DNA of 48,222 nucleotides from a bacterium (GCA_023135785.1 JAGLSL010000008.1:1-48222); one strand, 5' to 3'. Positions 5,866-42,951 are shown, counted from the first letter of the stretch. Notes: a model not told the origin generated them from the letters alone. Numbers and translations: made by a program.

Positions 5866-5951
5866 GCGGACGTGGCGGAATTGGTATACGCGTATGGCTT
5901 AGGACCATATCCCTTCGTGGGTTGAGAGTTCAAGTCTCTCCGTCCGCACCA
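5866..5951 (+). tRNA. tRNA-Leu (anticodon TAG), CCA encoded
   Basis: Manual cloverleaf. Acceptor GCGGACG/CGTCCGC. Anticodon stem TATGG/CCATA with loop CTTAGGA. Long variable arm. T-arm GAGAG-TTCAAGT-CTCTC. Discriminator A followed by CCA. Confidence 0.9.
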
Positions 5952-6048: not shown

Positions 6049-6120
6049 GCGGGTGTAGCTCAGTGGTAGAGCGTCACGTTGCCAACGTGAGGGTCACGAG
6101 TCCGAATCTCGTCGCCCGCT
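6049..6120 (+). tRNA. tRNA-Gly (anticodon GCC), no encoded CCA, unusual T-loop TCCGAAT
   Basis: Manual cloverleaf. Acceptor GCGGGTG/CGCCCGC (one G-U pair). D-arm GCTC-AGTGGTA-GAGC. Anticodon arm TCACG-TTGCCAA-CGTGA. T-arm ACGAG-TCCGAAT-CTCGT. Confidence 0.85.
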
Positions 6121-10000: not shown

Positions 10001-10007
10001 AAGTCAA

Positions 10008-10187
10008 GGCTCTGGGATATACGTGATGGAATAAATGGAATCTTGAGCCAAATAGTTAAAAAGGGAATTCTACTTTGGGTAAAGCGTGTACGTCCCGATG
10101 TAATGTCGGGAAAACACAAACTATTCAAGGGAATACCCACTTTGTAAAGCAGCTTTAAGATTCCTGTCCCACACGGTATCTTGGGGC
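10008..10187 (+). ncRNA. ssrS: candidate 6S RNA
   Basis: 180 nt starting 7-8 nt after a near-consensus promoter. The 5' end GCUCUGGGAUAUACGUG pairs with the 3' end CACACGGUAUCUUGGGGC, followed by UUUUU. A second helix forms between GGAAUCUU and AAGAUUCC. The centre is largely unpaired, and the apical hairpin is GUGU-acg-UCCCGAuguaaugUCGGGA-aa-ACAC. UGAGCC on the 5' side and UUCAAGGG on the 3' side resemble elements I recall in E. coli 6S RNA. Location downstream of zapA matches the E. coli zapA-ssrS arrangement. Confidence 0.55.
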
Positions 10188-10192
10188 TTTTT

Positions 10193-14023: not shown

Positions 14024-14097
14024 CGTCCCCAGGAGGAGTCGAACCTCCAACCTACGGATCCGAAGTCCGTTGCTCTATCCAGTTGAGCTATGGGGAC
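14024..14097 (-). tRNA. tRNA-Arg (anticodon TCG)
   Basis: The reverse complement folds as GTCCCCA-TA-GCTC-AACTGGATA-GAGC-A-ACGGA-CTTCGGA-TCCGT-AGGTT-GGAGG-TTCGACT-CCTCC-TGGGGAC-G. Confidence 0.9.
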
Positions 14098-22820: not shown

Positions 22821-23993
22821 ATGATTGATGTTTCAAAAAAATTAAAAGCACTTGTTGAATACCCTTTTGCAGAACTTGACAGAAAAAAAGCAGAAGTTTT
22901 GAAAAAAGGTGGTGACGTTATATCCCTTGGAATTGGCGACCCCGATTTAGGACCGTTTCCGAGTGTAATAGAAAAACTAAAAGAATCAACATCAACGCTC
23001 AATGTAAATAAATACCCTTCATATAAAGGCAGCGAAGAATTACGCTACGCTGTTGCAAAATGGTATAAAGACAGATTCGGTGTAAAACTTGACCATGAAA
23101 CAGAAGTTCTAATTCTAATAGGCGCAAAAGAAGGCATAGGACATATACCATTGGCTTTTGTTGACCAAGGGGACAGCGTATTAGTACCAGACCCCGGATA
23201 TCCGGTATATAAGGCGGGCACTATTCTGGCTGGTGGTTCACCTTTAACTATGCCATTGCACGCAGAAAACGGATTTCTTCCGGATCTAAAAGACATTGAA
23301 AAAAAATATGGGCCTCAACTTATAAACTGTAAAATGATGTTCTTAAATTATCCAAATAACCCGACCAGCGCCATAGCTGACGAAGGCTTTTTTAAAGAAG
23401 TCGTCGATTTTGCGCAGCGACACAATATAATCATCTGCCACGATGCAACTTATTCGGAAATTACTTATGATAACTATAAAGCACAAAGCTTTCTGGAAAC
23501 AGAAGGAGCCAAAAATGTCGGAGTAGAATTCCATTCGCTTTCAAAATCCTGCAATATGACAGGTTGGAGAATTGGATTTGTAGTAGGCAATAGAGAAGTA
23601 ATTGTAGGATTGGGGAAAGTAAAAACAAACATGGATTCAGGTGCGCCAAACCATATGCAGATTGCAGGGATAGAAGCGATAAATACAATGCAGGAAAATT
23701 TGGGAAGGATTCTTCCGGTATATAAAGAGAGAAGAGACCTATTAGTGAAAGCAATGCAGGAAGCAGGCATCAATATGCAGTCTCCAAAAGCGACATTCTA
23801 CCTGTGGATTCCTGTCCCTGCTGGCATGAAGTCTGTAGACTTCTGCGGGAAAGTACTTGAAGAATGCGGCGTTCTGGTAACACCCGGCACAGGTTTTGGA
23901 GCTGAAGGTGAAGGTTATTTCAGGATAAGCTTAACCGCCTCCACAGAAAAAATAGAAGAAGCATATAAAAGAATTAAAAATTTGAAATTGTAA
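22821..23993 (+). CDS. dapL: class I/II PLP aminotransferase, probable LL-diaminopimelate aminotransferase
   Basis: 390 aa. N.PNNPT and SLSKS.NM.GWR (PLP lysine) motifs. Immediately downstream of dapF. The substrate assignment is an inference from synteny. Confidence 0.6.
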   Translation: MIDVSKKLKALVEYPFAELDRKKAEVLKKGGDVISLGIGDPDLGPFPSVIEKLKESTSTLNVNKYPSYKGSEELRYAVAKWYKDRFGVKLDHETEVLILIGAKEGIGHIPLAFVDQGDSVLVPDPGYPVYKAGTILAGGSPLTMPLHAENGFLPDLKDIEKKYGPQLINCKMMFLNYPNNPTSAIADEGFFKEVVDFAQRHNIIICHDATYSEITYDNYKAQSFLETEGAKNVGVEFHSLSKSCNMTGWRIGFVVGNREVIVGLGKVKTNMDSGAPNHMQIAGIEAINTMQENLGRILPVYKERRDLLVKAMQEAGINMQSPKATFYLWIPVPAGMKSVDFCGKVLEECGVLVTPGTGFGAEGEGYFRISLTASTEKIEEAYKRIKNLKL

Positions 23994-24047
23994 AATTGTC
24001 GGATTTTAAAAATTTTCTCCACTTTTAAAAAATTTAACTTATTTTTT

Positions 24048-24062
24048 GCACAATTTTTGTGC
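24048..24062. promoter_or_regulatory. palindromic operator candidate GCACAA-ttt-TTGTGC, abutting TGC-TATAAT (extended -10 at 24060-24068)
   Basis: Perfect 6+3+6 palindrome. The same motif occurs at 28948-28962 and, with one mismatch, at 31197-31211. Confidence 0.5.
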
Positions 24063-24093
24063 TATAATTTCATCTGTTGATTTAGTGAGATTT

Positions 24094-24129
24094 AACCACG
24101 ACGCCGTGGAAAGCGCCGTGGTTTTTTTA
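24094..24129 (+). terminator. intrinsic terminator or attenuator in the dapL-gdhA spacer
   Basis: AACCACG (24094-24100) pairs with CGTGGTT (24117-24123), followed by a T7 run. The direct repeat CGCCGTGG x2 offers an alternative, non-terminating partner at 24105-24109. Confidence 0.55.
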
Positions 24130-24131
24130 TT

Positions 24132-24158
24132 TTGTAATATTAGAAAAAGTGGTAAAAT
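24132..24158 (+). promoter_or_regulatory. second promoter candidate for gdhA (TTGTAA-N15-TGG-TAAAAT)
   Basis: Extended -10 TGGTAAAAT at 24150-24158. The spacer is short at 15 nt. Confidence 0.3.
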
Positions 24159-24216
24159 CCACAAAGCAGTGATAACGACAAAGGTGTCTAACAAGTTAAG
24201 TGAGGAGGTTAGTTCT

Positions 24217-25554
24217 ATGTCTAATAAGATTGAATCTTTTATGGAAAAAATCATCAAGAAAAATCCTGGTGAACAGGAATTCCATCAGGCGGTAAAAGAG
24301 GTAGCTGAATCTGTGATACCGTTTATTGAAAAGAACCCAAAATATAAAAAAGCTAAGATATTAGAAAGAATAGCAGAACCCGAGAGAGTAATAATGTTCC
24401 GCGTTCCTTGGCTTGACGATAAAGGTGAAGTCCAAATTAACCGCGGCTTCCGCGTTCAAATGAACAACGCTATCGGCCCGTACAAAGGGGGACTACGTTT
24501 TCATCCCACTGTTTATTTAGGACTTTTAAAGTTTCTTGCTTTTGAACAGGTTTTCAAAAATAGCCTAACAACCCTTCCTATGGGTGGAGGCAAAGGCGGT
24601 TCTGACTTTGACCCTAAAGGAAAATCAGATAACGAAGTAATGAAGTTCTGCCAAAGTTTCATGACAGAACTTTGCAGACATATAGGCCCTAACACCGACA
24701 TACCTGCAGGAGATATCGGCGTAGGAGGACGTGAAATCGGCTTCATGTTCGGTCAATACAAACGTCTCCGCAACGAATTCACTGGCATCCTCACAGGCAA
24801 AGGTCTCAACTGGGGCGGTAGCTTAATCAGACCTGAAGCCACAGGTTATGGTTGTGTTTATTTTGTGGAAGCAATGTTAAAACACAAAGGAGATACATTA
24901 AAAGGAAAAACTTGCGCAGTATCAGGTTCCGGTAATGTTGCACAATATACAGCAGAGAAAGTAAACCAGTTGGGAGGAAAATGTGTTACCCTTTCCGACT
25001 CAAACGGTACAATTTACGACCCTAAAGGCATAGACGAGAAAAAATTAGCATATGTCATGGAACTTAAAAACGTAAAACGCGGTCGTATCAAAGAATATGC
25101 TAAAAAATACGGATGCAAATATTCCGAAGGCAAACGTCCTTGGGGCGTAAAATGCGATATTGCTTTCCCATCTGCAACACAAAATGAGATAAGCAAATCA
25201 GATGCAAAAGAGCTGGTTAAAAACGGTTGTATAGCTGTGGGAGAAGGCGCAAACATGCCTACAACACCTGAAGCTATAACAGTCTTCCAGAAGGCTAAGA
25301 TTCTATACGGTCCCGGCAAAGCAGCTAACGCTGGCGGGGTTTCTACTTCAGGACTTGAAATGTCACAGAATAGCCAAAGGCTTCCTTGGTCAAGAAAAGA
25401 AGTTGACAACAAACTTCATGAAATTATGGTTAATATACATCAGACATGTGTTAAATATGGGACAGAAGGTAAATACGTCAACTATGTAAAAGGAGCAAAT
25501 ATCGGCGGATTTGTAAAAGTCGCCGATGCAATGTTAGATCAAGGTCTGGTATAA
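24217..25554 (+). CDS. gdhA: NADP-specific glutamate dehydrogenase
   Basis: 445 aa from MSNKIESFMEK, with RBS GAGGAGG at 24202-24208. GGGKGGSDFDPKGKSD active-site motif and GSGNVAQY dinucleotide fold. Confidence 0.95.
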   Translation: MSNKIESFMEKIIKKNPGEQEFHQAVKEVAESVIPFIEKNPKYKKAKILERIAEPERVIMFRVPWLDDKGEVQINRGFRVQMNNAIGPYKGGLRFHPTVYLGLLKFLAFEQVFKNSLTTLPMGGGKGGSDFDPKGKSDNEVMKFCQSFMTELCRHIGPNTDIPAGDIGVGGREIGFMFGQYKRLRNEFTGILTGKGLNWGGSLIRPEATGYGCVYFVEAMLKHKGDTLKGKTCAVSGSGNVAQYTAEKVNQLGGKCVTLSDSNGTIYDPKGIDEKKLAYVMELKNVKRGRIKEYAKKYGCKYSEGKRPWGVKCDIAFPSATQNEISKSDAKELVKNGCIAVGEGANMPTTPEAITVFQKAKILYGPGKAANAGGVSTSGLEMSQNSQRLPWSRKEVDNKLHEIMVNIHQTCVKYGTEGKYVNYVKGANIGGFVKVADAMLDQGLV

Positions 25555-25591
25555 AAATAAAAAGCGCAAAGTTTGCGCTTAACTCATAGAC

Positions 25592-25635
25592 AAAGGCGTT
25601 CCTATCTATAATTAAAGATAGGAACGCCTTTTTTG
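25592..25635 (+). terminator. intrinsic terminator after gdhA
   Basis: AAAGGCGTTCCTATCT-ataattaa-AGATAGGAACGCCTTT is a 16-bp stem followed by a T-run. It is preceded by a smaller hairpin, AAGCGCAAagtTTGCGCTT (25562-25580). Confidence 0.85.
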
Positions 25636-25654
25636 TCAAAATTAGGAAGAAACT

Positions 25655-26167
25655 ATGGACTTTAGAATATTACTGGAGAAAATAACGCCTGCACTGAAAC
25701 ATATTGCGCGAAAACATTTATTATATGGTTTTTATGATGAGAAAGACCTTTACCAAGAAATGTGTCTTTATCTGTGGCAGAATTACGCAAACGGACTACC
25801 GATAGGCATAAATGAAGCATATGTGATCAAGGGATGCGAATTCCATATACAGAATTTCTTAAGAAAAGGCAGACCCAAAACACCTCTTTCAAGCCTTGAT
25901 AAACTAATATCTCCCGAAGGATTAACTTTGGGCGATATTCTTGAAGATAAAAAAACAAACCTTGAATTAGATATAGATTGCAAACTTACAATTGATAAAA
26001 TAAAAAGCATAGGGTTAAACGACAAAGAACGAAAGGTATTCTATTCTTTGCTTAAAGGATATACTGTTCGAGAGATAGCAAAAGAAATAGGATGTTCACA
26101 TGTTATGGTTATTAAGCATAAAAAGAACATAACAAAAAAATGGCAAAAAAAAGGTTACCAAGAGTAG
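25655..26167 (+). CDS. small sigma-70-family (ECF-like) sigma factor
   Basis: 170 aa. Region 2-like DLYQEMCLYLWQNY and region 4 HTH LNDKERKVFYSLLKGYTVREIAKEIGCSHVMV. Confidence 0.6.
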   Translation: MDFRILLEKITPALKHIARKHLLYGFYDEKDLYQEMCLYLWQNYANGLPIGINEAYVIKGCEFHIQNFLRKGRPKTPLSSLDKLISPEGLTLGDILEDKKTNLELDIDCKLTIDKIKSIGLNDKERKVFYSLLKGYTVREIAKEIGCSHVMVIKHKKNITKKWQKKGYQE

Positions 26168-26236
26168 TATATTTTTACTTAATACCATTGAAACACTCAG
26201 AAGTGTAAAGAAAACAAATTTAGGTAGTTTAGACAT

Positions 26237-26280
26237 AGGCGTCTTATCAATTTAATAAAATTGGCAAGACGCCTTTTTAT
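26237..26280 (+). terminator. intrinsic terminator after the sigma-like gene
   Basis: AGGCGTCTT...AAGACGCCT stem followed by TTTTTATTTTT. Confidence 0.7.
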
Positions 26281-26308
26281 TTTTAAAAAATTAAAAAAGG
26301 AGGGGAAG

Positions 26309-27070
26309 ATGCTAAAGAAGTCAAGGGGAAGGTTTAATGTATTGTCAGTAGCGGTTCTATTTTTAACTGTATTTGTTTCTTCTAATTGTTATGCTCAGGA
26401 AGGATTATTAGAAAATACGGACATAGGGATAAGTTCTGATGTAGGGATCTATTCAAAATACATCTGGAGAGGATTTAAGCTTGACGATGACCCGGTAATG
26501 CAGTCGGGAATTTACACAAGCATTAAAGGACTTACTGTTAGCATATGGGGAAGTTTTGATGTCGGAACAGAAGACAGCTTGAATTCAGATGAAGTTGACT
26601 ATTCAATAGATTACACTTATGAATTCGAAGATTACCTTAGCTTGTCGGTGGGACATAATTATTATGATTTCCCGCCAGCAGATCTATTTACTAAAGAGTT
26701 TTATATCGGCATGGGTTCTAATGTGCTACTTTCCCCAACTCTGACTTGGTATAGAGATTATGGAGACGAAGACAAAGGTGGTGGCGACGGCAGTTACACG
26801 GTTTTAGGCCTAAGTCACAGCTTTCCTTTGGGGGATTCGCCTGTTAGTTTGGACTTGAGCGGACATGTAGGATATAACGATAAACTTTTCATACAGGGCG
26901 AAGGAGGCGATACGGCTTTTAGCATTGGTTTAACTGTTCCTTTAACTGAAAAGATAACATTTAGTCCAAATGCTAATTATTCTATGCCATTCGGAGACCT
27001 CAAAGATGAAGATGACGGGAATCAGGAAGAAGAATTTTATTATGGGTTCACTATGGCATTTGATTTTTAA
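26309..27070 (+). CDS. putative outer-membrane beta-barrel porin (TorF / TIGR02001-like)
   Basis: 253 aa from MLKKSRG, with RBS AAAGGAGGGG. Signal peptide ending in YAQE. Alternating beta-strand pattern, YSKYIWRGF, and a C-terminal F. Upstream of amt, as is common for this family (from memory). Confidence 0.6.
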   Translation: MLKKSRGRFNVLSVAVLFLTVFVSSNCYAQEGLLENTDIGISSDVGIYSKYIWRGFKLDDDPVMQSGIYTSIKGLTVSIWGSFDVGTEDSLNSDEVDYSIDYTYEFEDYLSLSVGHNYYDFPPADLFTKEFYIGMGSNVLLSPTLTWYRDYGDEDKGGGDGSYTVLGLSHSFPLGDSPVSLDLSGHVGYNDKLFIQGEGGDTAFSIGLTVPLTEKITFSPNANYSMPFGDLKDEDDGNQEEEFYYGFTMAFDF

Positions 27071-27091
27071 AAATAGAAAGGAGGATGAAAT

Positions 27092-28462
27092 ATGTTAAAA
27101 ATGTTACATAGAGTATTAAAAGTAATTCCACTAGCGCTATTATTTACTTTCGGATTGGCAATATACGCATTTGCCGATGAGCCTAGTGCAGCAAGTAATG
27201 CCGTAGCCATTAATACCGTCTGGACTCTGGTAGCGGCATTCTTAGTTTTCTTTATGCAGCCGGGTTTTGCTATGGTTGAGGTCGGTTTTACCAGGGCAAA
27301 AAATGCCTCAAATATTTTAATGAAAAATCTTATGGATTTTTCAGTGGGTTCAATTGCTTTCTGGCTGGTAGGTTTTGGGATTATGTTTGGTGCGGATAAA
27401 TTAGGTCTTTTTGGCACCAGCGGATTTTTCTTAAGTGCCGCTAATCCTGCAACAGGGGAAGGCTTATGGCAATTTGCTTACTGGATGTTTCAAATAGTAT
27501 TTGCCGCTACCGCTGCTACCATCGTTTCAGGAGCAATGGCGGAAAGGACAAAATTTCCGGCCTATCTAATTTACTCGGTTTTCATCTGTGCCTTAATCTA
27601 TCCTGTAGTGGGCCACTGGATTTGGGGCGGCGGCTGGCTTTCAAGTAAAGGAATAATTGATTTTGCCGGTTCAACAGTAGTTCATTCAGTGGGCGGTTGG
27701 GCGGCCTTGGCCGGAGCAATATTGCTAGGTCCGAGGCTGGGGAAATACAACAAGGATAAAACCTCTAATGCTATTCCCGGGCATAACATTCCCTTAGCTG
27801 CATTGGGCGTGTTTATCCTCTGGTTTGGCTGGTTTGGTTTTAACGCTGGAAGCACGACTGCCGGCACTAATTTAAGTATTGCCACTATTGCAGTAACCAC
27901 TAATTTAGCTGCTGCAGCCGCTGCGATTACAGCTATGTTTACTGCCTGGAAAAAATTCGGGAAGCCGGATACCAGTATGGCTTTTAACGGAGCATTAGCT
28001 GGTTTAGTAGCCATAACCGCTCCCTGTGCCAGTGTATCCCCTTTGAGCGCGATTATTATCGGGGCGATAGCCGGTATATTAGTAGTTCTTAGTGTTGAGT
28101 TTATAGATAAAGTTCTACATATTGACGACCCCGTAGGAGCAATATCGGTTCATGGCGTTTGCGGTGCTTGGGGTACTCTTTCAGTCGGGCTCTTTGCTCA
28201 AAGTGCTTATGGCCAGTCAAGCGGAATAGGCGCTGTAAACGGTTTTTTCTTCGGAGGAGGATTATCACAGTTTTTTACTCAATTATTAGGCGTGGGTTCA
28301 GTATTCATATGGGTATTTGGAACCGCCTCAATTCTCTTCTTTATTATTAAGAAAACTATAGGATTAAGAGTATCCAAAGAAGATGAGTTGAAAGGTCTGG
28401 ATATTACTGAACATGGCATGGAGTCTTATGCTGGGTTTCAGATATTTACTACAGAAAAATGA
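27092..28462 (+). CDS. amt: ammonium transporter
   Basis: 456 aa. Signal peptide and about 11 TM helices. FFMQPGFAMVE.G, D.AGS.VVH..GG and GVHG.CG motifs. Confidence 0.95.
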   Translation: MLKMLHRVLKVIPLALLFTFGLAIYAFADEPSAASNAVAINTVWTLVAAFLVFFMQPGFAMVEVGFTRAKNASNILMKNLMDFSVGSIAFWLVGFGIMFGADKLGLFGTSGFFLSAANPATGEGLWQFAYWMFQIVFAATAATIVSGAMAERTKFPAYLIYSVFICALIYPVVGHWIWGGGWLSSKGIIDFAGSTVVHSVGGWAALAGAILLGPRLGKYNKDKTSNAIPGHNIPLAALGVFILWFGWFGFNAGSTTAGTNLSIATIAVTTNLAAAAAAITAMFTAWKKFGKPDTSMAFNGALAGLVAITAPCASVSPLSAIIIGAIAGILVVLSVEFIDKVLHIDDPVGAISVHGVCGAWGTLSVGLFAQSAYGQSSGIGAVNGFFFGGGLSQFFTQLLGVGSVFIWVFGTASILFFIIKKTIGLRVSKEDELKGLDITEHGMESYAGFQIFTTEK

Positions 28463-28530
28463 AAAGTACTAGCAAGCGTCCCGGCATTATGTCGGGACTA
28501 CTTGCTACCTTATAATAGGAGGATATTAAT

Positions 28531-28872
28531 ATGAAACTTATAATTGCAATGATACAACCGCACAAATTACCGGATGTAAAAAAAGCGCTCTATGATGCGA
28601 AAGTTTATAAAATGACTGTCTCCAATGCATTAGGTTGCGGGCAACAAAAAGGATTTAGTGAAACTTACCGTGGCGTAATCCACGAAGTGAATTTATTGAA
28701 AAAAGTAAGACTGGAGATAGCAGTTAACAAAGATTTTGTTGAACCAACAATTAACGCAATCATTAAAGGAGCAAGAACCGGCAACATCGGAGACGGCAAG
28801 ATATTTGTTTTGGACTTACAGGAATGTATTAGAATAAGAACAGGGGAACGCGGATATGATGCTATAGGATAA
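28531..28872 (+). CDS. glnK: P-II nitrogen regulatory protein
   Basis: 113 aa. [16 protein letters not shown] and a T-loop with YRG; GDGKIFV...C.RIRTGE. Adjacent to amt. Confidence 0.9.
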
Positions 28873-28947
28873 ATTGTTTTTGAAGGTTACCAAAAGCTCT
28901 GTTTTTTTACTTGTTACAATGTCAAATGTACAAGTCTAAGCAATAGA

Positions 28948-28962
28948 GCACAAGGTTTGTGC
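28948..28962. promoter_or_regulatory. palindromic operator candidate GCACAA-ggt-TTGTGC upstream of glnA
   Basis: Perfect palindrome about 100 nt upstream of the glnA ATG. A second inverted repeat, CTTGTTACA-N8-TGTACAAG, lies at 28911-28934. Confidence 0.5.
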
Positions 28963-29060
28963 AAATGTATAGAAAATAATTTAAAACAAAGTTGTTTTAA
29001 TCCTGATGGGTTAGAACATTTTTTTATTTAGAATTAACAACTTAAAAATGGAGGTTTAAA

Positions 29061-30392
29061 ATGGCAAAGAAAACAAAACAGGACATTTTAAAATTGGTTA
29101 AGGAAAAAGATGTAAAGTTTATACGCTTGTGGTTTACCGATTTATTAGGGCAGGTGAAGAGTTTTTCAATCACAGACAAGGAATTAGAGAATGCGCTTGA
29201 TAATGGTATGGGATTTGATGGCTCTTCCGTTACAGGTTATCAGGACATAGAAGAATCAGACATGATTGCAATGCCTGACCCTGATACATTTGCGGTATTG
29301 CCGTGGAGGCCAACAGAGAAAGCTGTCGCCAGAATGATATGCGACGTATTAAACCCCGACAAGACTCCATATGAAGGGGATCCGCGTTATGTCTTAAAAA
29401 GAGCTCTAAAACGCGCAAGCAAAATGGGTTTTGACCATTTTTATTTAGGGCCGGAACTTGAGTTTTTCTATTTTAAAAACGATATAGGCACAGAGATACT
29501 TGATAAAGGCGGGTATTTCGACCTAACCACACTCGACGTAGCAAGCGATTTAAGGAGAGAAACAGTATTGGCTCTTGAAAAGATGGGTATAGACGTTGAA
29601 TATTCGCATCATGAAGTAGCCCCATCTCAACATGAAGTCGATATGAAATATAAAGATGCGCTCGAGATGGCAGACAACGTTATAACTTACAGGGTTGTCG
29701 TAAAAGAGATTGCAAGTAAATTCGGAGTATATGCCACCTTTATGCCAAAACCTATTTTTGGGCAAAACGGTTCAGGAATGCATGTACATCAATCGCTATT
29801 CAAAGGAAAGAAAAACGCGTTTTTTGACAAAAATACAAAAGATAATTTATCAGATACAGCTCAAAGCTACATAGCAGGTCTTTTAAAATACTCAAAAGAG
29901 ATATGTTCTATCTTTGCGCAAACTACCAATTCGTATAAAAGATTAGTCCCGGGTTTCGAAGCACCGGTATACATAGCATGGAGCCGCAGGAACCGAAGCG
30001 CGCTTGTAAGAGTGCCGCTTTATTATCCCGGCAAAGAAAACGCTACCAGATGCGAATTCCGGGCAGGTGATCCTGCGTGTAATCCTTACATTACCTTTGC
30101 CGCTATGCTTCACGCGGGATTAGAAGGCGTAGAAAAGAAATATAAAGCGCCTAAGCCTATGGACCAGAATTTGTATCATTTAACTGCTGCAGAAAGAAAA
30201 GCTAAAGCTATCGAAACGCTTCCCGATAATCTTGGGAATGCAATCGCTCTAACCGAAAACAGCGAACTTGTTAAAAAGGTTCTGGGAAATCATATCTTCC
30301 CTAGATTCATCGAGCTGAAGAAGAAAGAATGGGACGATTATAGAATTCAAGTTCCTCAACACGAACTTGATAAGTATCTTTCTATTCTATAG
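29061..30392 (+). CDS. glnA: glutamine synthetase, type I
   Basis: 443 aa. FTD..G......I, GPE.EFF, GSGMH.H.S, NSYKRLVPG.EAP and the R.PD...NPY region. Confidence 0.95.
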   Translation: MAKKTKQDILKLVKEKDVKFIRLWFTDLLGQVKSFSITDKELENALDNGMGFDGSSVTGYQDIEESDMIAMPDPDTFAVLPWRPTEKAVARMICDVLNPDKTPYEGDPRYVLKRALKRASKMGFDHFYLGPELEFFYFKNDIGTEILDKGGYFDLTTLDVASDLRRETVLALEKMGIDVEYSHHEVAPSQHEVDMKYKDALEMADNVITYRVVVKEIASKFGVYATFMPKPIFGQNGSGMHVHQSLFKGKKNAFFDKNTKDNLSDTAQSYIAGLLKYSKEICSIFAQTTNSYKRLVPGFEAPVYIAWSRRNRSALVRVPLYYPGKENATRCEFRAGDPACNPYITFAAMLHAGLEGVEKKYKAPKPMDQNLYHLTAAERKAKAIETLPDNLGNAIALTENSELVKKVLGNHIFPRFIELKKKEWDDYRIQVPQHELDKYLSIL

Positions 30393-30448
30393 CAAGCCGA
30401 AAGTTACTGTTATTACTATTATCATAAGCAAATATAATAGATTTTAAT

Positions 30449-31168
30449 ATGAGTTTATCGCAAGAAATCAGCAATTGGATAGAAAAGCAAGTTAAAAACG
30501 CCAATAAAAAAGGTATTGTTTTAGGACTGAGCGGGGGAATTGATTCTTCGGTAGTAGCGGTTTTATCGAAGAAAGCATTAGGCGATAATGTTCTCGGGTT
30601 ACTCCTTCCCTGTAATAGTTCCAACATAGACGAGAGGTTGGCAACGGAACTTGCAAACACATCCAACATAAAAACCAGGAAGATAGATTCGTCCGGCCTC
30701 TTTAATCAGCTAATTAATATAAATCCCAAAGCAAATGACCTGGCTAAAGCCAATTTGAAACCCAGGTTGAGAATGCTGATTTTGTATTATTTTGCTAACT
30801 CATTGGATTATTTAGTAGCAGGTACCGGAAACAAAAGCGAGATAATGACAGGTTACTTTACCAAACACGGTGATGGAGGCTGTGATGTTTTGCCTTTGGG
30901 AGGATTATTGAAAACAGAAGTGAAAAGTTTAGCAAGAGAGTTGAATCTTCCATCTGAAATTATAAAAAGACCGCCAACTGCGGGGCTTTGGGAAGGGCAA
31001 ACAGATGAATCCGAAATGGCTATAACTTATAAAGATTTAGATAAATGTCTTATAGCAATTGAAAGTAAAACTTTTAAAAATCTTAAAGAATCGGACTTAA
31101 AAAGAGTACGGTTGATGATTAAGAAATCACACCATAAAAGAAAAAGAATTCCAATGTTCTATTTTTAA
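30449..31168 (+). CDS. nadE: NH3-dependent NAD+ synthetase
   Basis: 239 aa. SGGIDSS PP-loop and GTGNKSE..TGYFTK.GDGG. There is no glutaminase (CN-hydrolase) domain. Confidence 0.9.
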   Translation: MSLSQEISNWIEKQVKNANKKGIVLGLSGGIDSSVVAVLSKKALGDNVLGLLLPCNSSNIDERLATELANTSNIKTRKIDSSGLFNQLININPKANDLAKANLKPRLRMLILYYFANSLDYLVAGTGNKSEIMTGYFTKHGDGGCDVLPLGGLLKTEVKSLARELNLPSEIIKRPPTAGLWEGQTDESEMAITYKDLDKCLIAIESKTFKNLKESDLKRVRLMIKKSHHKRKRIPMFYF

Positions 31169-31196
31169 AAAGAAATTGAAAAACTTGTTTAAAAAT

Positions 31197-31211
31197 GCAC
31201 AAGAATTGAGC
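31197..31211. promoter_or_regulatory. operator-like site GCACAA-gaa-TTGAGC, 8 nt upstream of the Fis-like gene
   Basis: One mismatch to the gdhA and glnA palindromes. Lies in the 50-nt nadE/Fis-like spacer. Confidence 0.4.
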
Positions 31212-31218
31212 GTTTTTT

Positions 31219-31446
31219 ATGATAGACAATATTTCTGATATATTGGATAAAGATTTTTATGATATAGACGCTGGCAAGATATATGCCAACATGGTCAACC
31301 GTGTTGAAAAAATAGTTATAACAAAAGCACTTGAGCGTTCATGCGGCAACCAGGTTGAGGCATCAAAGATACTCGGGCTACACCGCAATACTTTACATAG
31401 TAAGATAAAGAAGTTTAATATAGACATAATGAAATTTAAAAAATGA
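31219..31446 (+). CDS. stand-alone Fis-type (HTH_8) DNA-binding protein
   Basis: 75 aa. VEKIVITKALERSCGNQVEASKILGLHRNTLHSKIKKFNI matches the C-terminal HTH of the Fis and NtrC families. Stop overlaps the gltB start (ATGA at 31443). The RBS is weak. Confidence 0.6.
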   Translation: MIDNISDILDKDFYDIDAGKIYANMVNRVEKIVITKALERSCGNQVEASKILGLHRNTLHSKIKKFNIDIMKFKK

Positions 31447-34400
31447 ATTCCAGATCTTTTCCTGTTAAACAGGGATTATATGACCCGTGGTTTGAGCACG
31501 ACAGTTGTGGTGTGGGATTTGTCTGCAATATAAACGGGGAAAAATCGCATGATATTGTAAGTAAAGGCATCGAGGTTCTTGAAAGATTAAGTCACAGAGG
31601 CGCCGTTGGAGCTGATCCCGAAACGGGAGATGGCGCAGGCATATTGATACAAATACCCCATAAATTCTTACTGCAACAATGTAAAGAAAACGATATTCTA
31701 TTGCCCAAATTCGGACATTATGGAACAGGATTGGTTTTCCTACCTACCGATAATAAAGAAAAAAACTTCTGCATTAATCTATTCAAAAAAACTGTTAATG
31801 AAGAGGGGCAAAAATTTCTCGGCTGGCGTAATCTCCCTGTAGATAGTTCGGTGATAGGAGAAAGCGCAAAAAAAACCATGCCGTTTATTTCTCAAGTCTT
31901 TATTGGAAGAAATAAAAACTTAAAGACTCAGGCTACATTTGAGAGAAAACTCTATATCATTAGAAAACAAATTGAGAATATTATCCGCTCATCTTCCTTA
32001 AAGCAAAAATCCTGCTTTTATATTACAAATTTATCATCCAAAACCCTAAGTTATAAAGGATTATTAAAACCTTCCCAATTAAGAGATTTTTTCCCTGACC
32101 TAAAGAATAAAACTATAGAAAGTTCTTTATGTCTGGTTCATTCACGATACAGCACAAACACCTTCCCTACTTGGGATCTATCACAACCATTCAGGTTCTT
32201 AGCTCATAATGGAGAGATAAACACCTTGCGCGGAAACATAAATTGGATCAGAGCAAGAGAACGGCTTCTTGTAAACGAATTATTCGGCACGGATATAGAA
32301 AAATTAAAACCAGTTATTGTTGAAGGAGGCAGTGACTCGGCAGCTATTGATAACGTCTTTGAACTGCTAGCGTTGTCAGGCAGACCTCTTGAGCATGCAA
32401 TGATGATGCTTATTCCTGAAGCTTGGGAGCACAACGATTTTTTAAATAAAGAACTTGAAGATTTTTATAAATACCATGCCTGCTTTATGGAGCCATGGGA
32501 CGGTCCGGCTGCAATAGCGTTTACAGATGGAAAAAATATCGGAGCAATACTAGACAGAAACGGACTTAGACCTGCGCGTTATATTGTAACCAAGAATGAT
32601 TTTGTGGTAATGGCATCAGAGGTCGGAGTTCTCAATATAGACCCTGAAGATATTAAGACCTCAGGAAGACTTGAGCCGGGTAAAATATTCCTTATTGATA
32701 CCCAATCCGGACGCATAGTGCAAGATTGTGAAATTAAAAAGAAAGTCTCTATGTCTTCTCCTTATGGTAAGTGGAATACTGCGAATATGGTTAACCTCGA
32801 TAAACTTATTACCAGCGGCACAGGTAATAAAAAATCTGAAGATATCATGTCTCAACTAAAAGCCTTCGGTTATTCCAGAGAAGATTTAAAAATGATTATA
32901 AAACCTATGGCAGAAGACGGCAAAGAACCTACTGGTTCCATGGGGAATGATACTCCTCACGCATTTTTATCAAAAAAACCTCAAATCCTTTATAACTATT
33001 TCAAACAACTTTTCGCGCAAGTAACAAATCCTGCCATAGACTCAATAAGAGAAAAACTTGTTATGAGTCTGGAAAGTTTTGTTGGACCTGAGAAAAACAT
33101 CTTAGAGGAAACACCGGAACATAGCCATAAACTTACGGTAAAAAATCCAATACTAACAAACGACGAGTTTGAAAAGATTCGCGATATAAGCATAAACGGG
33201 TTCACATCAAAGACACTCTATACTTTCTTCAATGCGGCAGACGGTCAGGAGGGATTTAGGCTTACTTTAGAAAGGATTTGCTTTGAAGCAGAATATGCTA
33301 TTGAAAAGGGATATTCTTTTATCGTACTCAGTGACAGAGGAACAAACAAAGATAATATAGCTTTACCAATGCTTTTGGCTACAAGCACCATTCATCAACA
33401 CCTTGTAAGAAAAAATATACGTTCGCAGGTCGCAATTATAATCGAAAGCGCAGAACCACGGGAAGTACATCATTTTGCGCTCCTTTTCGGTTACGGCGCA
33501 GATTGTATAAACCCATACCTTGCATATGAAACAATAGAATATCTCATAGAACAAAAGGAGATTAACGTAGATATTAAAAAAGCGCTTGCAAATTACAACC
33601 AAGCACTAAGAAACGGCATATTAAAAATACTATCCAAGATGGGAATATCCACCTTAAGAAGTTATAGAGGCGCGCAGATATTTGAAGCATTGGGTTTGGA
33701 TAACGAGCTTATAGAAAAGTTTTTTACCGGGACAGTATCGAGAATAGGAGGGGTAGGACTTGAAGGCATAGCAGACGAAACCATAGAAAGACATAAATTC
33801 GCCTATCCTAAAAGAGGTATGACAGCCCCCTATCTGGCAAGCGGCGGAATATACCAATGGAAAAAAGATGGAGAATTTCACCTTTGGAACCCTGAGAGTA
33901 TCGCTGCGCTGCAGGATGCTACGTGCAATAATGACTATGCTCTATACAAAGAATTTGCAAATATGATCAATGACCAATCAAAAAACCCTACGACTTTGAG
34001 GGGACTGCTTAAATTTAAAAAAGGAAAACCAATTTCTATTGATAAAGTTGAACCTGCCCGAAAGATAATGAAACGTTTCGCAACAGGAGCAATGAGCTTC
34101 GGCTCAATCTCCAAAAAAGCGCATGAAACAATCGCAATTGCCATGAACAGAATTGGGGGGAAATCCAATACCGGTGAAGGCGGTGAAGACCCTAATAGAT
34201 TTATAAAATTACCAAATGGAGATTCCAAACGAAGCGCTATAAAGCAAGTTGCTTCCGGTAGATTCGGAGTTACTATTAATTATTTGGTAAATGCAGACGA
34301 GATTCAAATAAAAATTTCCCAAGGAGCAAAACCGGGTGAAGGCGGCCAACTTCCCGGACATAAAGTAAGTGAAATTATTGCAAGAACGCGCTATACAACT

Positions 34401-37433: not shown

Positions 37434-40058
37434 ATGATAAGCACAGGTATAAATGGTTTAGATAATATAATTACAGGATTAAGAATTGGGGATAATACTG
37501 TTTGGCAAATAGATGACATAAAGGACTATGCCCAACTCGTTAAACCGTTTGTAGCGCAGGCACTTAAAGACAAGAAAAAAGTTGTATACATGAGGTTTGC
37601 TTCCCATAAAGAACTGCTTAAACCTTCACCAAAAATAAAACGCTATGAACTTAATGCATATGCGGGATTTGAATCTTTTGCCACAAAAGTCAACAACATA
37701 ATTACACGGGAAGGCGAAGGCGCATATTATGTATTTGACTGCCTTTCAGAACTTCTTTCAGCCTGGGCTACCGACCTTATGATAGGAAACTTTTTCATGG
37801 TCACTTGTCCTTATCTTTACGAACTTAAAACCGTCACATACTTCTCAATATTAAGATATAAACATTCCTTTAAGTCAATAGCCAGGATACGTGAGACAAC
37901 TCAATTATTGGTGGATGTATATCATTGCCAAGGTAGTTTTTACATACATCCTCTAAAAGTTTGGAATCGTTATTCTCCCACTATGTTTCTTCCTCACCAG
38001 AAAGAAAACGGTAAATTTACACCTATTACAGACAGTGTTAACGCTGTAAAGTTGCTTTCTTATATACACGAAAAGGGAGCGGAGAGCGCAAAAAGAAATC
38101 TGGATTATTGGGACCTTTTATTTATCAAGGCAGAGGAACTACTCAAGAATAATGCTTCGAAGAATAAAATAAAAAATATGGTAAAAAAACTTTGCGGCAT
38201 AATGTTAACAAAAAACGAAAAAATATTATCCCTGGGGATACAACACTTCTGTTTAGAAGAACTTATCGAGATAAAATCAAGATTGATAGGCACAGGATAT
38301 ATTGGCGGGAAAAGCACAGGAATGCTTCTTGCTCGAAAAATTCTTTCGGAGAACAAATTGCTTAATTGGGAGAAAATCTCAGAATCGCACGACTCATTTT
38401 ATATAGGTTCGGATATATTCTATTCATACATAGTGCAGAACCGATTATGGAAACTACGTATGCAACAGAAAACAGAGGGCGAATACTTCAAAGTAGCAAA
38501 AATCCTAAAAGAAAAGATACTTTATGGAACCTTTCCTGAAGAAATTATGGAACACTTTCAGCAGATTATAGAATATTTTGGCTCATCGCCTATCATAATA
38601 CGCTCAAGTTCACTTTTAGAAGACGGTTTTGGCAACGCATTTGCCGGAAAATATGAAAGCATATTTTTAGCCAATCAAGGAAGCCCCGAACAAAGATATA
38701 TTCAATTTGCAGAAGCTGTAAAGAAAGTATATTCAAGCACTATGAGCGAAGACGCCCTTGCATATAGAAAACAAAGAGGCCTGGATAAATTAGACGAACA
38801 AATGGCGCTGTTGGTGCAAAGAGTTTCGGGCGCCCCTCACCAAGAGTATTTCTTTCCTGACCTTGCGGGAGTTGGTCTATCTCACAATATATACATGTGG
38901 AATGAAAATATGAATCCAAAGGCAGGAATACTCAGATTAGTTTTTGGACTTGGAACAAGAGCAGTTAACCGCGTTGAAGGGGATTATCCTAGAATGGTTG
39001 TACTCGACAATCCTTTACAAAGACCATACGCAGAAAAAGATGACTTGAGAAAATTTTCACAACACGAAGTAGACCTTATAAACATAAAAGAAAATGCTTT
39101 TAAGACCATCCCTTTCGAAAATCTTATAAATGAAAAATCTTATGTAAATATAGACCGCGTCGCTGTAAAAGATTATGAGTCCATACACATGATGAGTAAG
39201 AACGACACCGAAGACAAAGAATATTGGATATTGACACTGGATAATGTATTTAACGGTAATACATTGATAAGTTTATTTAAAAAGATATTAAAATCACTTG
39301 AGAAAAGTTACGGCTATCCTGTCGAGATAGAATTTACGGTAAACTTTGTAAGGGATAATACCTTCAAAATAAATTTACTGCAATGCAGGCCACTACAGAC
39401 AACGGGGCGCGGACGTAGAGTTGGGATGCCAAATATTGTAAAGAGAGAAAATATATTCTTCCAGTCACAAGGATATTTTCTGGGAGGCAATATTTCGCAG
39501 GAAATACGAAGGATTGTATATATTGACCCACAGAAATATAGTAAACTTATATTATCTGATAAATATGAAATCGCCCGTATAGTAGGAAGATTAAACAGCT
39601 GCATAGAAAGCAGGGAAAAGTTACCCACTCTTCTTATGGGACCAGGAAGATGGGGCACCACAACACCATCCTTAGGTATACCGGTAAAATTTGCAGAAAT
39701 AAACAATGTGGCAATCCTTGCAGAAGTCGCCTTCTCGGAAGGTAACCTTATGCCTGAACTGTCTTTCGGAACACATTTTTTCCAGGACTTGGTTGAAACA
39801 AACATATTCTATGTTGCATTGTTTCCTGAGAAAAAATCTGCCCGCTTCGCCGAGAGGCAAGCAGGCGGAGATATTATATTCAACGATAAATTTTTCAAGA
39901 AAGATAAAAATTTACTCGCAAAACTTGTGCCTCAATCGGCTAAATATAAAGATGTTATCGGTGTATATGATATAAGTAGCGGAGATTTAAAAATAATGTC
40001 AGACATAGTCTCGCAGAAGATTATATGTTTTTCAGACTCAAAAAGGATACTTAAATGA
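37434..40058 (+). CDS. uncharacterised PEP/pyruvate-binding (PPDK_N, ATP-grasp-like) domain protein with a degenerate KaiC/RecA-like N-terminal domain
   Basis: 874 aa. The centre has IGGKSTGMLLARKIL and IIIRSSSLLEDGFGNAFAGKYESIFL, resembling the nucleotide-binding domain of PEP synthase/PPDK. I found no phosphohistidine swivel motif (G.TSH). The N-terminus GINGLDNIITGLRIGDNTVWQIDD resembles the KaiC/RadA entry motif but has no GxxGxGK(S/T). The stop overlaps the carA start (ATGA at 40055). Confidence 0.7.
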   Translation: MISTGINGLDNIITGLRIGDNTVWQIDDIKDYAQLVKPFVAQALKDKKKVVYMRFASHKELLKPSPKIKRYELNAYAGFESFATKVNNIITREGEGAYYVFDCLSELLSAWATDLMIGNFFMVTCPYLYELKTVTYFSILRYKHSFKSIARIRETTQLLVDVYHCQGSFYIHPLKVWNRYSPTMFLPHQKENGKFTPITDSVNAVKLLSYIHEKGAESAKRNLDYWDLLFIKAEELLKNNASKNKIKNMVKKLCGIMLTKNEKILSLGIQHFCLEELIEIKSRLIGTGYIGGKSTGMLLARKILSENKLLNWEKISESHDSFYIGSDIFYSYIVQNRLWKLRMQQKTEGEYFKVAKILKEKILYGTFPEEIMEHFQQIIEYFGSSPIIIRSSSLLEDGFGNAFAGKYESIFLANQGSPEQRYIQFAEAVKKVYSSTMSEDALAYRKQRGLDKLDEQMALLVQRVSGAPHQEYFFPDLAGVGLSHNIYMWNENMNPKAGILRLVFGLGTRAVNRVEGDYPRMVVLDNPLQRPYAEKDDLRKFSQHEVDLINIKENAFKTIPFENLINEKSYVNIDRVAVKDYESIHMMSKNDTEDKEYWILTLDNVFNGNTLISLFKKILKSLEKSYGYPVEIEFTVNFVRDNTFKINLLQCRPLQTTGRGRRVGMPNIVKRENIFFQSQGYFLGGNISQEIRRIVYIDPQKYSKLILSDKYEIARIVGRLNSCIESREKLPTLLMGPGRWGTTTPSLGIPVKFAEINNVAILAEVAFSEGNLMPELSFGTHFFQDLVETNIFYVALFPEKKSARFAERQAGGDIIFNDKFFKKDKNLLAKLVPQSAKYKDVIGVYDISSGDLKIMSDIVSQKIICFSDSKRILK
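39837..39872 (+). repeat. GC-rich mini-palindrome TCTGCCCGC...GGCGGAGA, in frame inside the 874-aa gene
   Basis: Encodes SARFAERQAGGD, in the same reading frame relative to the arm as the pdxA copy (PARQSLSGGG). Confidence 0.5.
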
Positions 40059-41229: not shown

Positions 41230-42951
41230 ATGCCTAAAAGAACGGATATAAAAAAGATATTAATAATCGGCGCAGGTCCTATCGTAATCGGACAGGCATG
41301 CGAATTTGATTATTCGGGAACACAGGCATGTAAAGTTCTCAAAGCCGAAGGATTTCATGTTATCCTGCTAAACAGCAATCCTGCAACGATTATGACAGAT
41401 CCGATAACAGCTGATAAAACATACATCGAGCCAATTACTCCCGAAATAGTTCAAAGAATTATTGAAAAAGAAAAACCCGACGCTATTCTGCCCACACTCG
41501 GCGGACAAACTGCGCTAAATGTTACCGTACAAGTTGCAGAAATGGGAATATTTGATAAATACAATGTGGAAGTCATAGGCGCAAATATACAAGCTATCAA
41601 AAAAGCCGAAAACAGAGAACTATTCAAAAAGGCAATGCATAAAATAGGGCTGGATTTACCCAGAAGCGACAAAGCGCACAGCTTAAAAGAAGCCTTAGAG
41701 GTGGTCGAAGAAATCGGAATTCCCGTAATTATAAGACCAAGTTTCACATTGGGAGGAACAGGCGGAGCAGTCGCATACAATATAGAAGAATTCAAACGAT
41801 TAGCTAAGACAGGTCTTGAATCGAGCATGATTAGCCAAATATTAATTGAAGAATCCGTCATCGGATGGAAAGAATTCGAATTGGAAGTTATGCGAGACGT
41901 AAAAGACAATGTTGTTATTATATGTTCTATAGAAAATTTTGACCCTATGGGGGTTCATACAGGTGATTCAATTACGGTTGCTCCCATACAAACTTTAACA
42001 GACAAAGAATATCAAAACATGCGTGATGCCTCAATTGCATGCATCAGAGAAATAGGTGTAGAAACAGGCGGTTCCAATGTTCAATTTGCGGTTAATCCGG
42101 ATAACGGACGAATGGTAGTTATTGAAATGAATCCCCGTGTATCAAGAAGTTCCGCATTGGCCTCCAAAGCAACAGGATTTCCCATTGCAAAAATAGCCGC
42201 AAAACTTGCCATAGGATATACGCTGGATGAAATTCCCAATGACATCACAAAAGAAACTCCCGCGTGTTTTGAACCAACAATCGATTATTGCGTAGTTAAG
42301 ATACCACGATTTACTTTCGAAAAATTCTCCGAAGCGAACGCTACTCTAACCGTATCCATGAAATCCGTAGGCGAGGCAATGGCAATCGGACGAACATTCA
42401 AAGAAGCGTTGCAAAAAGGATTAAGGTCTTTGGAAATAGGAGTAGACGGTCTTATGGATTTAAAATTTCAAGTTAGCGAAATTCAACTTTTCGAAAAGTT
42501 AAGAACTCCAAACGCCGAGAGAATTTTTTATATAAAATACGCATTAAAGAACGGTATGAATATAGACGATATTTATAAACATACTCAAATTGACAGATGG
42601 TTTTTACATAACATCCAAGAAATTGTAGAATTGGAAAAACAAATAACAGATTCCAGACAACAGATTTCAGACAACAGAAATCAGAAAATTAAAAATAAAA
42701 AACAAAAAGATATGTCATCTGATGTCCGTCCTCTGTCTTCTGATTTGTTATTGAAAGCTAAACAATTCGGGTTCAGCGACAAACAACTTGCAAGGATGCT
42801 AAAAACAGAGGAAGAAATTATTAGAAATTTACGTAATAAATTAAATATTAAAGCTGTATATAAATTGGTCGATACCTGCGGTGCAGAATTTGAAGCTTAC
42901 ACACCATATTACTATTCTACCTATGAAAAAGAAAACGAAAGCTGTAATTAA
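41230..42951 (+). CDS. carB: carbamoyl-phosphate synthase large subunit, N-terminal half only (first ATP-grasp plus oligomerisation domain)
   Basis: 573 aa. [30 protein letters not shown], then the ATP-grasp domain, ending at [27 protein letters not shown]. From memory this is where the second synthetase half of the ~1070-aa enzyme begins. Confidence 0.85.
42641..42752 (+). repeat. imperfect CAGA/TCTG word palindrome, in frame within carB
   Basis: aaataacagattccagacaacagatttcagacaacagaaatcagaa...tcatctgatgtccgtcctctgtcttctgatttgttatt. The ends AATAACA/TGTTATT are complementary. Encodes [34 protein letters not shown]. Confidence 0.75.

Follow-up and report, generated by a model that had tools for sequence, protein, structure and literature searches.

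Three similar palindromes in the nitrogen-assimilation cluster of an uncultured Omnitrophota bacterium probably belong to more than one class of regulatory element

The DNA stretch studied here (GCA_023135785.1 JAGLSL010000008.1:1-48222; 48,222 nucleotides (nt), analysed as a whole and called the window below) carries a nitrogen-assimilation cluster on its plus strand. The genes are arranged in the order aminotransferase, gdhA, a gene for a 170-aa regulator, a gcw/TorF-type porin gene, amtB, PII, glnA and nadE, followed by a gene for a 75-aa HTH_8 protein that overlaps gltB, and then gltD, a gene for a PPDK_N protein, carA, the N-terminal part of carB (carB-N), guaA, hisH and hisF. The nearest relatives of the GlnA protein (80-89% identity) are nearly all found in metagenome-assembled genomes (MAGs) of Candidatus Omnitrophota, in which the synteny is shared; part of the window sequence is contained in contigs of the MAG GCA_030639545.1, and the host is an uncultured Omnitrophota bacterium. 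The phylum is almost wholly uncultured and, to our knowledge, its gene regulation is essentially unknown. The palindrome GCACAA-N3-TTGTGC is found upstream of gdhA, of glnA and of the unit formed by gltB and the 75-aa protein, which resembles the C-terminus of NtrC as well as Fis and is called Fis-like below. A sequence-only reading had taken the three copies for a single operator of a nitrogen regulator. It appears more probable that they represent two, and possibly three, classes of element that share a GCAC...GUGC core: the glnA copy would be an RNA hairpin and the Fis-like copy a DNA box, while the gdhA copy is ambiguous.

The three sites reported by that reading, at 24048, 28948 and (with one mismatch) 31197, are all present as described, and they are the sole matches of the pattern GCACAANNNTTGTGC with at most one mismatch in the 48 kb of the window. 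In 100 shuffles the mean number of such matches was 0.05, and none of the shuffles contained three. The pattern is enriched at this stringency, and not when up to three mismatches are allowed (21 matches against 16.9 expected). The positions had been read correctly as well: the gdhA copy adjoins a -10 element, TGCTATAAT (24060-24068), the ATG at 29061 comes 99 nt after the end of the glnA copy, and that of the HTH_8 gene, the stop codon of which overlaps the start of gltB, 7 nt after the end of the third copy. The statement that the other intergenic regions are devoid of the motif was wrong, since GCGCAAAGTTTGCGC is found at 25564-25578, 77 nt before the next gene, and the diverged ACACTCAGAAGTGT at 26193-26206. 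In 1.13 Mb of related loci (designated by L-numbers) there are 36 matches with at most one mismatch, of which more than half are located about 100 nt upstream of glnA and none is found in the non-Omnitrophota loci of that set. The view that the sites are regulatory elements of the nitrogen cluster and not chance occurrences is borne out. We also agree that they are not TnrA, NtcA or NrpR boxes, as judged from the published consensus sequences and inspection by eye, no pattern scan for these boxes having been made.

Table 1. Positions of the regulatory features, the associated regulator genes and the other RNA genes in the window
Feature	Position	Strand	Remarks
tRNA genes (three)	5866-5948, 6049-6120, 14024-14097		unrelated to the palindromes
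6S RNA	10006-10191		Rfam, 95.6 bits; unrelated to the palindromes
gdhA copy, GCACAATTTTTGTGC	24048..24062		perfect 6-3-6 dyad over the spacer of the extended -10 element
Intrinsic terminator, gdhA upstream region	24094..24128	+	5' arm alternatively CCAC-GACGCC-GUGG (24096-24109)
P1, ECF-type sigma gene leader	25562..25580	+	AAGCGC-AAAGUUU-GCGCUU; pattern match at 2 mismatches
P2 with overlapping intrinsic terminator, sigma gene leader	25589..25637	+	P2 is GAC-AAAGGC-GUU
170-aa sigma-70-family (ECF-type) sigma factor gene	25655..26167	+	TIGR02937, 43.0 bits (cut-off 42.9), residues 3-166
Leader of the gcw/amtB/PII operon	26153..26280	+	block GGTTACC-N16-TACTT (26153-26180), P1, P2, terminator
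P1, amtB operon leader	26193-26206	+	ACAC-UCAGAA-GUGU; diverged copy
P2, amtB operon leader	26231-26244	+	AGAC-AUAGGC-GUCU; terminator 26237-26280
Promoter-like block GGTTACC-N16-TACTT, glnA	28885..28912	+	upstream of the glnA leader
P1, glnA copy	28948..28962	+	GCAC/GUGC core stem, loop AAGGUUU; A at loop position 1, G at position 4
P2, glnA leader	28983-28998	+	AAAAC-AAAGUU-GUUUU; part of the P2/terminator span 28983..29025
Intrinsic terminator, glnA leader	28993-29018 (stem)	+	followed by U run; overlapped by P2; seen in terminator scan, minimum-energy fold and R1 alignment
Fis-like copy, TGCACAAGAATTGAGCG	31196..31212	+	weak M2 instance, 6 nt before the HTH_8 ATG, no Shine-Dalgarno sequence between
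75-aa stand-alone HTH_8 (Fis/NtrC-type DNA-binding domain) gene	31219..31446	+	Pfam HTH_8, 4e-13

The glnA copy is the first hairpin (P1) of a leader RNA in which a second hairpin (P2) overlaps an intrinsic terminator (Table 1). In about 55 relatives the region upstream of glnA consists of the block GGTTACC-N16-TACTT, 20-45 nt, the palindrome, a short linker and an antiterminator/terminator pair. The two copies that had been overlooked are P1 hairpins too, one in the leader of the gene for the 170-aa protein, which is a sigma factor of the extracytoplasmic function (ECF) type, and one in the leader of the gcw/amtB/PII operon. In comparison with the glnA copy, the P1 hairpin of the sigma gene carries a compensatory change from A-U to G-C, and the RNA fold of its leader has a z of -8.0. 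In the minimum-energy folds of all three leaders P1 and the terminator are formed and P2 is not; the free RNA is thus predicted as P1 plus terminator, and transcription would therefore stop before the gene. The possibility that the palindrome at 25564 is the terminator of gdhA was discarded, because a U run on the plus strand is lacking, P2 and a real terminator follow, and the palindrome is kept as P1 in the sigma gene leaders. A scan for the core ACAAAGGCGUY together with its own terminator gave about 70 units, most of them with a preceding hairpin NGCAC-(A N N G N N [N])-GUGCN. In all of these the loop and the 3' strand of P2 (consensus RRAC-AAAGGC-GUYY) constitute the 5' arm of the terminator; the linker between P1 and P2 measures 3-26 nt.

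A covariance model of the P1/P2 leader unit (R1), with the glnA unit of the window among its seeds, identifies three units in the window, before glnA (28944-29001; 43.8 bits), the sigma gene (25560-25605; 42.4 bits) and the amtB operon (26189-26248; 27.0 bits). A match at 108-148 (GAACAAAGGCGUUC) lies inside a DUF4321 coding region, has neither a P1 nor a terminator stem, and was treated as a chance hit. Applied to 857 kb of Omnitrophota loci with a limit of E = 0.1, R1 returned 76 units, 43 of them non-seed and 75 on the strand of the gene. The next gene is glnA in 35 cases, the sigma gene in 18, amtB/gcw in 10 and a GAF-ANTAR gene in three; none of the 76 units precedes the Fis-like gene or gltB. 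The core pairs of P1 vary over these units, one being GC in 50, AU in 19, GU in five and UG in one, another CG in 63, UA in eight and UG in three, and another AU in 69 and GC in four, with 10 wobble pairs against two non-pairs in the core. The covariation score of P1 is 0.312, compared to 0.177 for shuffles (a value of 0.312 was reached in none of 500) and 0.02-0.14 for slid partners. An alignment of 36 units made with MAFFT also supports both helices (GC 29/AU 5/GU 2; CG 33/UA 2/UG 1; AU 32/GC 3/GU 1; CG 36; for the third pair of P2 AU 13/GC 9/GU 2), and every summary measure exceeded those of 500 shuffles and of all slid controls. The loops are conserved as well: P1 has an A at position 1 in 64 of 75 units and a G at position 4 in all 75, P2 an A at position 1 in 66 of 72 and a G at position 4 in 68 of 69. 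The P2 loop is 6 nt long; that of P1 measures 6 nt in about a quarter of the units and 7 nt in all others, the glnA copy among them. Many glnA leaders (L020, L021, L024, L007, L008) possess a third hairpin about 25 nt upstream of P1, e.g. CUGGU-AUUGUA-ACCAG, again with A at loop position 1 and G at position 4.

The block GGTTACC-N16-TACTT was found at 64 sites in the related loci and the window (62 outside the window, in L002-L059), always on the strand of the gene and in 62 of the 64 cases with a spacer of exactly 16 nt. In the window it precedes glnA and the amtB operon, and in the second case it runs across the final codons of the sigma gene. Most blocks are followed by a P1/P2 leader, with P1 located 20-45 nt beyond the block. 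The block is probably the promoter recognized by the adjacent ECF-type sigma factor, which would place the glnA palindrome inside the transcript. The 170-aa protein had a Pfam GerE/LuxR flag only, and the idea that it is a "LuxR-like" operator-binding regulator was dropped in view of its TIGR02937 match, which was obtained for 14 out of 14 tested homologs. Within the nitrogen cluster of the Omnitrophota the sigma factor is kept at 60-75% identity. In the relatives its gene has a promoter of its own, of the TTGACA/TATACT type, followed by one to three tandem terminator units.

The known substrate of ANTAR proteins consists of two mini-hairpins with hexaloops that have an A at position 1 and a G at position 4, the second hairpin being situated at the 5' base of a terminator; such targets mostly occur upstream of genes for PII, ammonium transporters, glutamine synthetase and glutamate synthase (PMC3369931; Ramesh et al. 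2012). The ANTAR regulator GnfR of Geobacter binds CAGGCAANGGCGCC in the glnK-amtB and nif leaders (PMC2995071), a GGC-AANGGC-GCC hairpin with the same loop as the P2 loop AAAGGC/AAGGGC found here. Two tandem stem-loops are present in the glnA, sigma gene and amtB units, partly so for the gdhA copy, and not for the Fis-like copy. The A and G at positions 1 and 4 of the loops are found across the R1 units; position 4 is a U in the gdhA copy and an A in the Fis-like copy. P2 and the overlapping terminator are mutually exclusive, P2 being fused to the terminator 5' arm, and the units precede glnA, amtB/PII and regulator genes, all as in the targets of EutV, NasR and AmiR (PMC3369931) and of GnfR (PMC2995071). 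By its sequence, the element that contains the glnA copy is of the known ANTAR-target kind, here in a phylum that is new to ANTAR-based nitrogen control.

The ANTAR genes themselves point in the same direction, since in the relatives they adjoin the leaders as in known ANTAR systems. A tblastn search of the related loci with an ANTAR sequence as query gave matches in about a dozen loci. In three of these (L016, L026 and L048) the gene product, a protein of about 240 aa, was confirmed by Pfam to contain a GAF and an ANTAR domain (73-76 bits) and is encoded just upstream of a P1/P2 leader; about nine other loci had a match. In L053-L055 the GAF-ANTAR gene is itself preceded by a P1/P2 leader (about 4570-5280). 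The ANTAR part is similar to EutV, NasR and Rv1626, and the GAF part to the corresponding domains of NifA-like and PtsP proteins. Compared to the known targets, those described here belong to a candidate phylum, have a one-component GAF-ANTAR protein rather than a response regulator as partner, often have a P1 loop of 7 nt, come in many leaders as several tandem P2-terminator units or as P2 alone, and are wired to an ECF-type sigma factor and GGTTACC-N16-TACTT promoters. A MAG labelled Actinomycetota contains an R1 unit (L060:9859-9899; 29.9 bits) and an ANTAR gene beside glnA.

The footprint of the palindrome in orthologous upstream regions was kept in part: the glnA copy is present in more than 35 orthologs, and the exact palindrome is preserved neither before gdhA nor before the Fis-like gene. 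At the latter position the relatives keep a different, 17-bp box (M2), with the consensus TGCAYAAAAWTTAGGCA and the outline TGC-N11-GCA, immediately upstream of Fis-like/gltBD in about 30 of them. Over 36 distinct sites the consensus is T G C (A/C/T) (T/C) A A A A (A/T) T T A G G C A, with TGC and GCA ends that are near-invariant. The inner symmetric positions can pair in 39-83% of these sites and do not covary, which rules out an RNA hairpin; M2 therefore is a directional DNA-type motif and not a helix. A matrix built from the sites before gltB (training sites 17.0-27.2 bits, hit threshold 17 bits) gave 39 hits in the Omnitrophota (glnA) loci against 1-3 in Markov shuffles, and eight sites (11 hits) against 1-4 in independent gdhA-bearing metagenome contigs. 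These eight are all found in the 5' region, before gdhA, before operons of an FeS-subunit gene, a gltD-like gene and gdhA, and once before the gene that follows gdhA. In the window the Fis-like site ranks first with 16.6 bits and the gdhA copy third with 15.6 bits (minus strand). The Fis-like copy lacks an R1 match and a terminator, it pairs at TGC/GCA only, and as RNA it folds no better than shuffled sequence (z = -0.56).

Judged by its conservation, the M2 box at Fis-like/gltBD is real, and it is the more novel part of the system. As to its mechanism, we infer that M2 is the putative target of an HTH_8 protein, for which the 75-aa Fis-like protein is the simplest candidate, and that it serves as an operator located at the transcription start or beside it. 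The Fis-like protein had been listed among the candidate regulators of the palindrome; it may retain this role as putative binder of the DNA-type box at its own unit, and possibly at gdhA, and loses it for a single shared operator. The box bears a resemblance to the binding site of enteric NtrC (NR-I), TGCACCAnnnTGGTGCA (PMC8743547): both measure 17 bp, have the outline TGC-N11-GCA, belong to nitrogen-assimilation genes and can take a promoter-overlapping, would-be repressing position, and the enteric site is read by an HTH_8 (Fis-type) domain, as is proposed for M2, the reader of which is a candidate. In other respects the two differ, since M2 has an A/T-rich centre, is directional (TGCAY...AGGCA), is located 0-40 nt before start codons instead of about 100 nt upstream of a sigma-54 promoter, and has a 75-aa stand-alone domain as its candidate binder. 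Between the NtrC dyad TGCACCA-N3-TGGTGCA and M2 or the window copies the outline TGC-N11-GC(A) alone is common, and an HTH_8 gene lies beside the box. A reading of the palindromes and M2 as sigma-54 promoters was rejected, because they lack the GG-N10-GC geometry (the GCAC-to-GCA spacing of M2 is 13 nt as against 11 nt) and the pattern is not enriched: TGGCAC-N5-TTGCW has no match in the window with at most one mismatch, and 173 matches against 155 expected with at most three. None of the open reading frames in the window encodes a Sigma54_activat (AAA+ activator) domain.

M2 boxes that abut start codons were seen in L005, L007, L008, L011, L017, L028, L094, L099 and other loci, in which other genes have a strong GGAGG. 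Since the starts adjoined by M2 mostly lack a Shine-Dalgarno sequence while those other genes possess one, this arrangement suggests leaderless or very short-leader mRNAs, or else that the box is a promoter element. M2 was also found beyond the Omnitrophota, after glnA in L077 (3012) and in the Margulisiibacteriota locus L078 (3090), the box in L078 being located before a Fis-like gene. The regulators seem to be cross-wired, as M2 boxes occur beside GAF-ANTAR genes in L018 (4037) and L045 (6150), and P1/P2 leaders before the GAF-ANTAR genes in L053-L055.

How do the separate classes compare with a single DNA operator, in which one dimeric nitrogen regulator, for instance the Fis-like HTH_8 protein, would bind the same palindrome at gdhA, glnA and Fis-like/gltB? 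We consider the latter improbable. It would explain why three near-identical dyads occur where 0.05 are expected, why the 17-bp extension TGCACAA-N3-TTGTGCA is one change per half-site away from the NtrC box, why an HTH_8 gene is present within the cluster and why the gdhA copy overlaps a -10 element. In a few (three) relatives, moreover, the P1 hairpin of glnA reads TGCACAAAGTTTGTGCA and scores 15.7-17.6 bits on the M2 matrix. Yet the glnA copy lies within the leader, between a conserved promoter block and a terminator, and in the window it scores 8.3 bits on the M2 matrix, far from the range of the training sites. Its paralogs in the same genome have changed both arms together, to GCGC..GCGC at 25564 and to ACAC..GUGU at 26193, and such joint changes would not be tolerated by a sequence-specific DNA-binding protein. 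G-U pairs are confined to the gene strand, and the G of the loop never varies. The box that precedes the Fis-like gene, in turn, is asymmetric and its inner positions are not mirrored. The claim of one shared operator thus finds no support, the glnA copy being an RNA element and the Fis-like copy a different box. The case is a caution for reading regulation from sequence by itself: a perfect palindrome found at three nitrogen genes had the look of a single operator, yet it appears to comprise an RNA hairpin and a separate DNA box. Less probable still is that the leaders are protein-free, either as ligand-sensing riboswitches or as simple constitutive attenuators. The conservation of the loops and of the alternative pairing could be accounted for in this way, and an ANTAR gene is absent from the window; the conserved part, however, consists of two hairpins with stems of 4-6 bp and is therefore too small for a ligand pocket. 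Rfam gave only the 6S RNA and the tRNAs at gathering scores in the whole window, and nothing relevant at E up to 10 in the region 23900-31500, where no curated family (e.g. the glnA/glutamine riboswitch) was matched. The motif equals the definition of an ANTAR target, and GAF-ANTAR genes both adjoin the leaders and are themselves preceded by them.

Several observations nevertheless weigh against the division into an ANTAR-type RNA element and an M2-type DNA box. A search of the window and of 10 kb on each side of it turned up no ANTAR gene. In P1 hairpins of the glnA type the loop measures 7 nt (with the stem GCAC/GUGC) or 3 nt (when fully zipped) and not the canonical 6 nt, and in many relatives the leader consists of P2 and a terminator without a recognizable P1, whereas published work on EutV requires both hairpins. 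Of the 76 R1 matches, 33 are seeds of the model, and the alignment (A4) was fitted to the model. In view of the M2-like P1 hairpins of the three relatives mentioned above, a dual role in RNA and DNA is conceivable for some glnA P1 hairpins. On the DNA side, both M2-type sites of the window score below every training site, and 23 of the 39 M2 sites are located 0-12 nt before a start codon, 21 of these 23 without a Shine-Dalgarno sequence, which a plain operator model leaves unexplained.

The gdhA copy fits neither class cleanly; it is either derived from P1, as a hairpin without the loop G, or a DNA operator akin to M2. Quite possibly, though with less than even confidence on our part, it is not a DNA operator but an RNA hairpin that stems from P1, in a leader unit that has decayed or changed; transcripts from upstream would then fold into a P1-like hairpin (P1*), a P2-like CCAC-GACGCC-GUGG and the terminator at 24094-24128, and expression would come from a proximal promoter-like extended -10 element, TGGTAAAAT, at 24150-24158. 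The geometry is P1-like, with the copy 155 nt before the ATG and the terminator starting 32 nt past its end, and in the fold of 24044-24132 (z = -3.55) both the hairpin and the terminator are formed. The orthologs L087 and L102 have a full set of P1, P2 and terminator at the same relative place, and others have P2 and the terminator; M2 sites, unlike this copy, are usually within 40 nt of the start codon. However, loop position 4 is a U where all 75 true P1 hairpins have a G, the P2-like loop begins with G instead of A, and R1 recognizes no unit on the plus strand and one on the minus strand (21.2 bits) through the P1 dyad alone. A convincing promoter upstream of the copy is lacking, and TGCTATAAT would start transcription downstream of it. 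That the copy is an M2-like operator which represses the TGCTATAAT promoter, with the geometry of the NtrC-type regulator GnfM on gdhA in Geobacter, we regard as slightly less probable. The dyad occupies the whole spacer as far as a perfect extended -10 element, its centre contains A and T only, as in M2, and its score ranks third among about 96,000 positions in the window; M2 precedes gdhA or gdhA operons in eight independent loci, and GnfM does repress gdhA via promoter-overlapping sites. Against this stand the violation of two near-invariant M2 positions in either orientation, a coding-region position (16605) that scores as high by chance (15.9 bits), the absence of such a site from the closest gdhA orthologs (83-84% identity) and the terminator between the TGCTATAAT promoter and gdhA. 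The upstream regions of these closest orthologs could not be aligned with that of the window, and exact-protein look-ups gave no other strain.

Two further observations concern the gdhA upstream region. Before the ribosome-binding site a weak dual-hexaloop motif is present at 24159-24200 (CCAC-AAAGCA-GUG, 5 nt, GAC-AAAGGU-GUC; R1 11.2 bits, E = 0.68) without a terminator, which might hint at translational rather than transcriptional control of gdhA. In the public annotation of the MAG, gdhA encodes 502 aa and starts from a TTG at 24046 (24046-25554), so that it swallows the palindrome and the terminator; the alignments of the orthologs and a GAGGAGG site support the ATG at 24217 (445 aa) as the start.

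For the RNA element we propose that under nitrogen limitation a dimeric GAF-ANTAR protein, with the GAF domain as the putative nitrogen sensor, would bind both loops by way of A1 and G4 and hold P2 closed. Closed P2 would block the terminator, so that RNA polymerase would go on to transcribe glnA, the amtB operon and the sigma gene, and the sigma factor would in turn drive the GGTTACC-N16-TACTT promoters of amtB and glnA in a cascade. It is conceivable, if rather speculative, that the Omnitrophota and at least some Margulisiibacteriota thus have two sigma-54-independent tiers of nitrogen control, one of RNA, in which a GAF-ANTAR protein gates an ECF-type sigma factor for amtB/PII and glnA, and one of DNA, in which a 75-aa NtrC-type domain acts on TGCAYAAAAWTTAGGCA. 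In such a scheme M2, placed against the starts of gltBD and gdhA operons that lack a Shine-Dalgarno sequence, may serve an NtrC-derived regulator or may be a promoter element for leaderless or near-leaderless mRNAs. The two tiers may not have been described together before. The Geobacter cascade of GnfL/GnfM and GnfK/GnfR (PMC2995071) is comparable in that gdhA is controlled by a DNA-binding tier and terminator-containing leaders by an ANTAR tier that works through antitermination, with the regulator genes under the control of their own system. It differs in its first tier, which depends on sigma-54 and an enhancer-binding protein; here the leaders are located behind promoters of the sigma-70 or ECF type, and the DNA tier is a proposed one.

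The present results provide a cis-regulatory map of glnA, amtB/PII, the ECF-type sigma gene and the GAF-ANTAR gene, as well as of gdhA in the relatives, and a covariance model that can be applied to MAGs. They extend ANTAR-based nitrogen control to another phylum and link it to an alternative sigma factor. New insight could come above all from the M2 box, with its odd placement next to start codons.

Elsewhere in the cluster, the 874-aa protein encoded at 37434-40058 has PPDK_N (phosphoenolpyruvate-utilising, ATP-grasp) as its sole domain, and it is found 3' of gltD in nearly all relatives, at 65-77% identity. The carB gene at 41230-42951 encodes the N-terminal half alone (573 aa) and is directly followed by guaA, which suggests a split large subunit of carbamoyl-phosphate synthase, with the second half encoded elsewhere.

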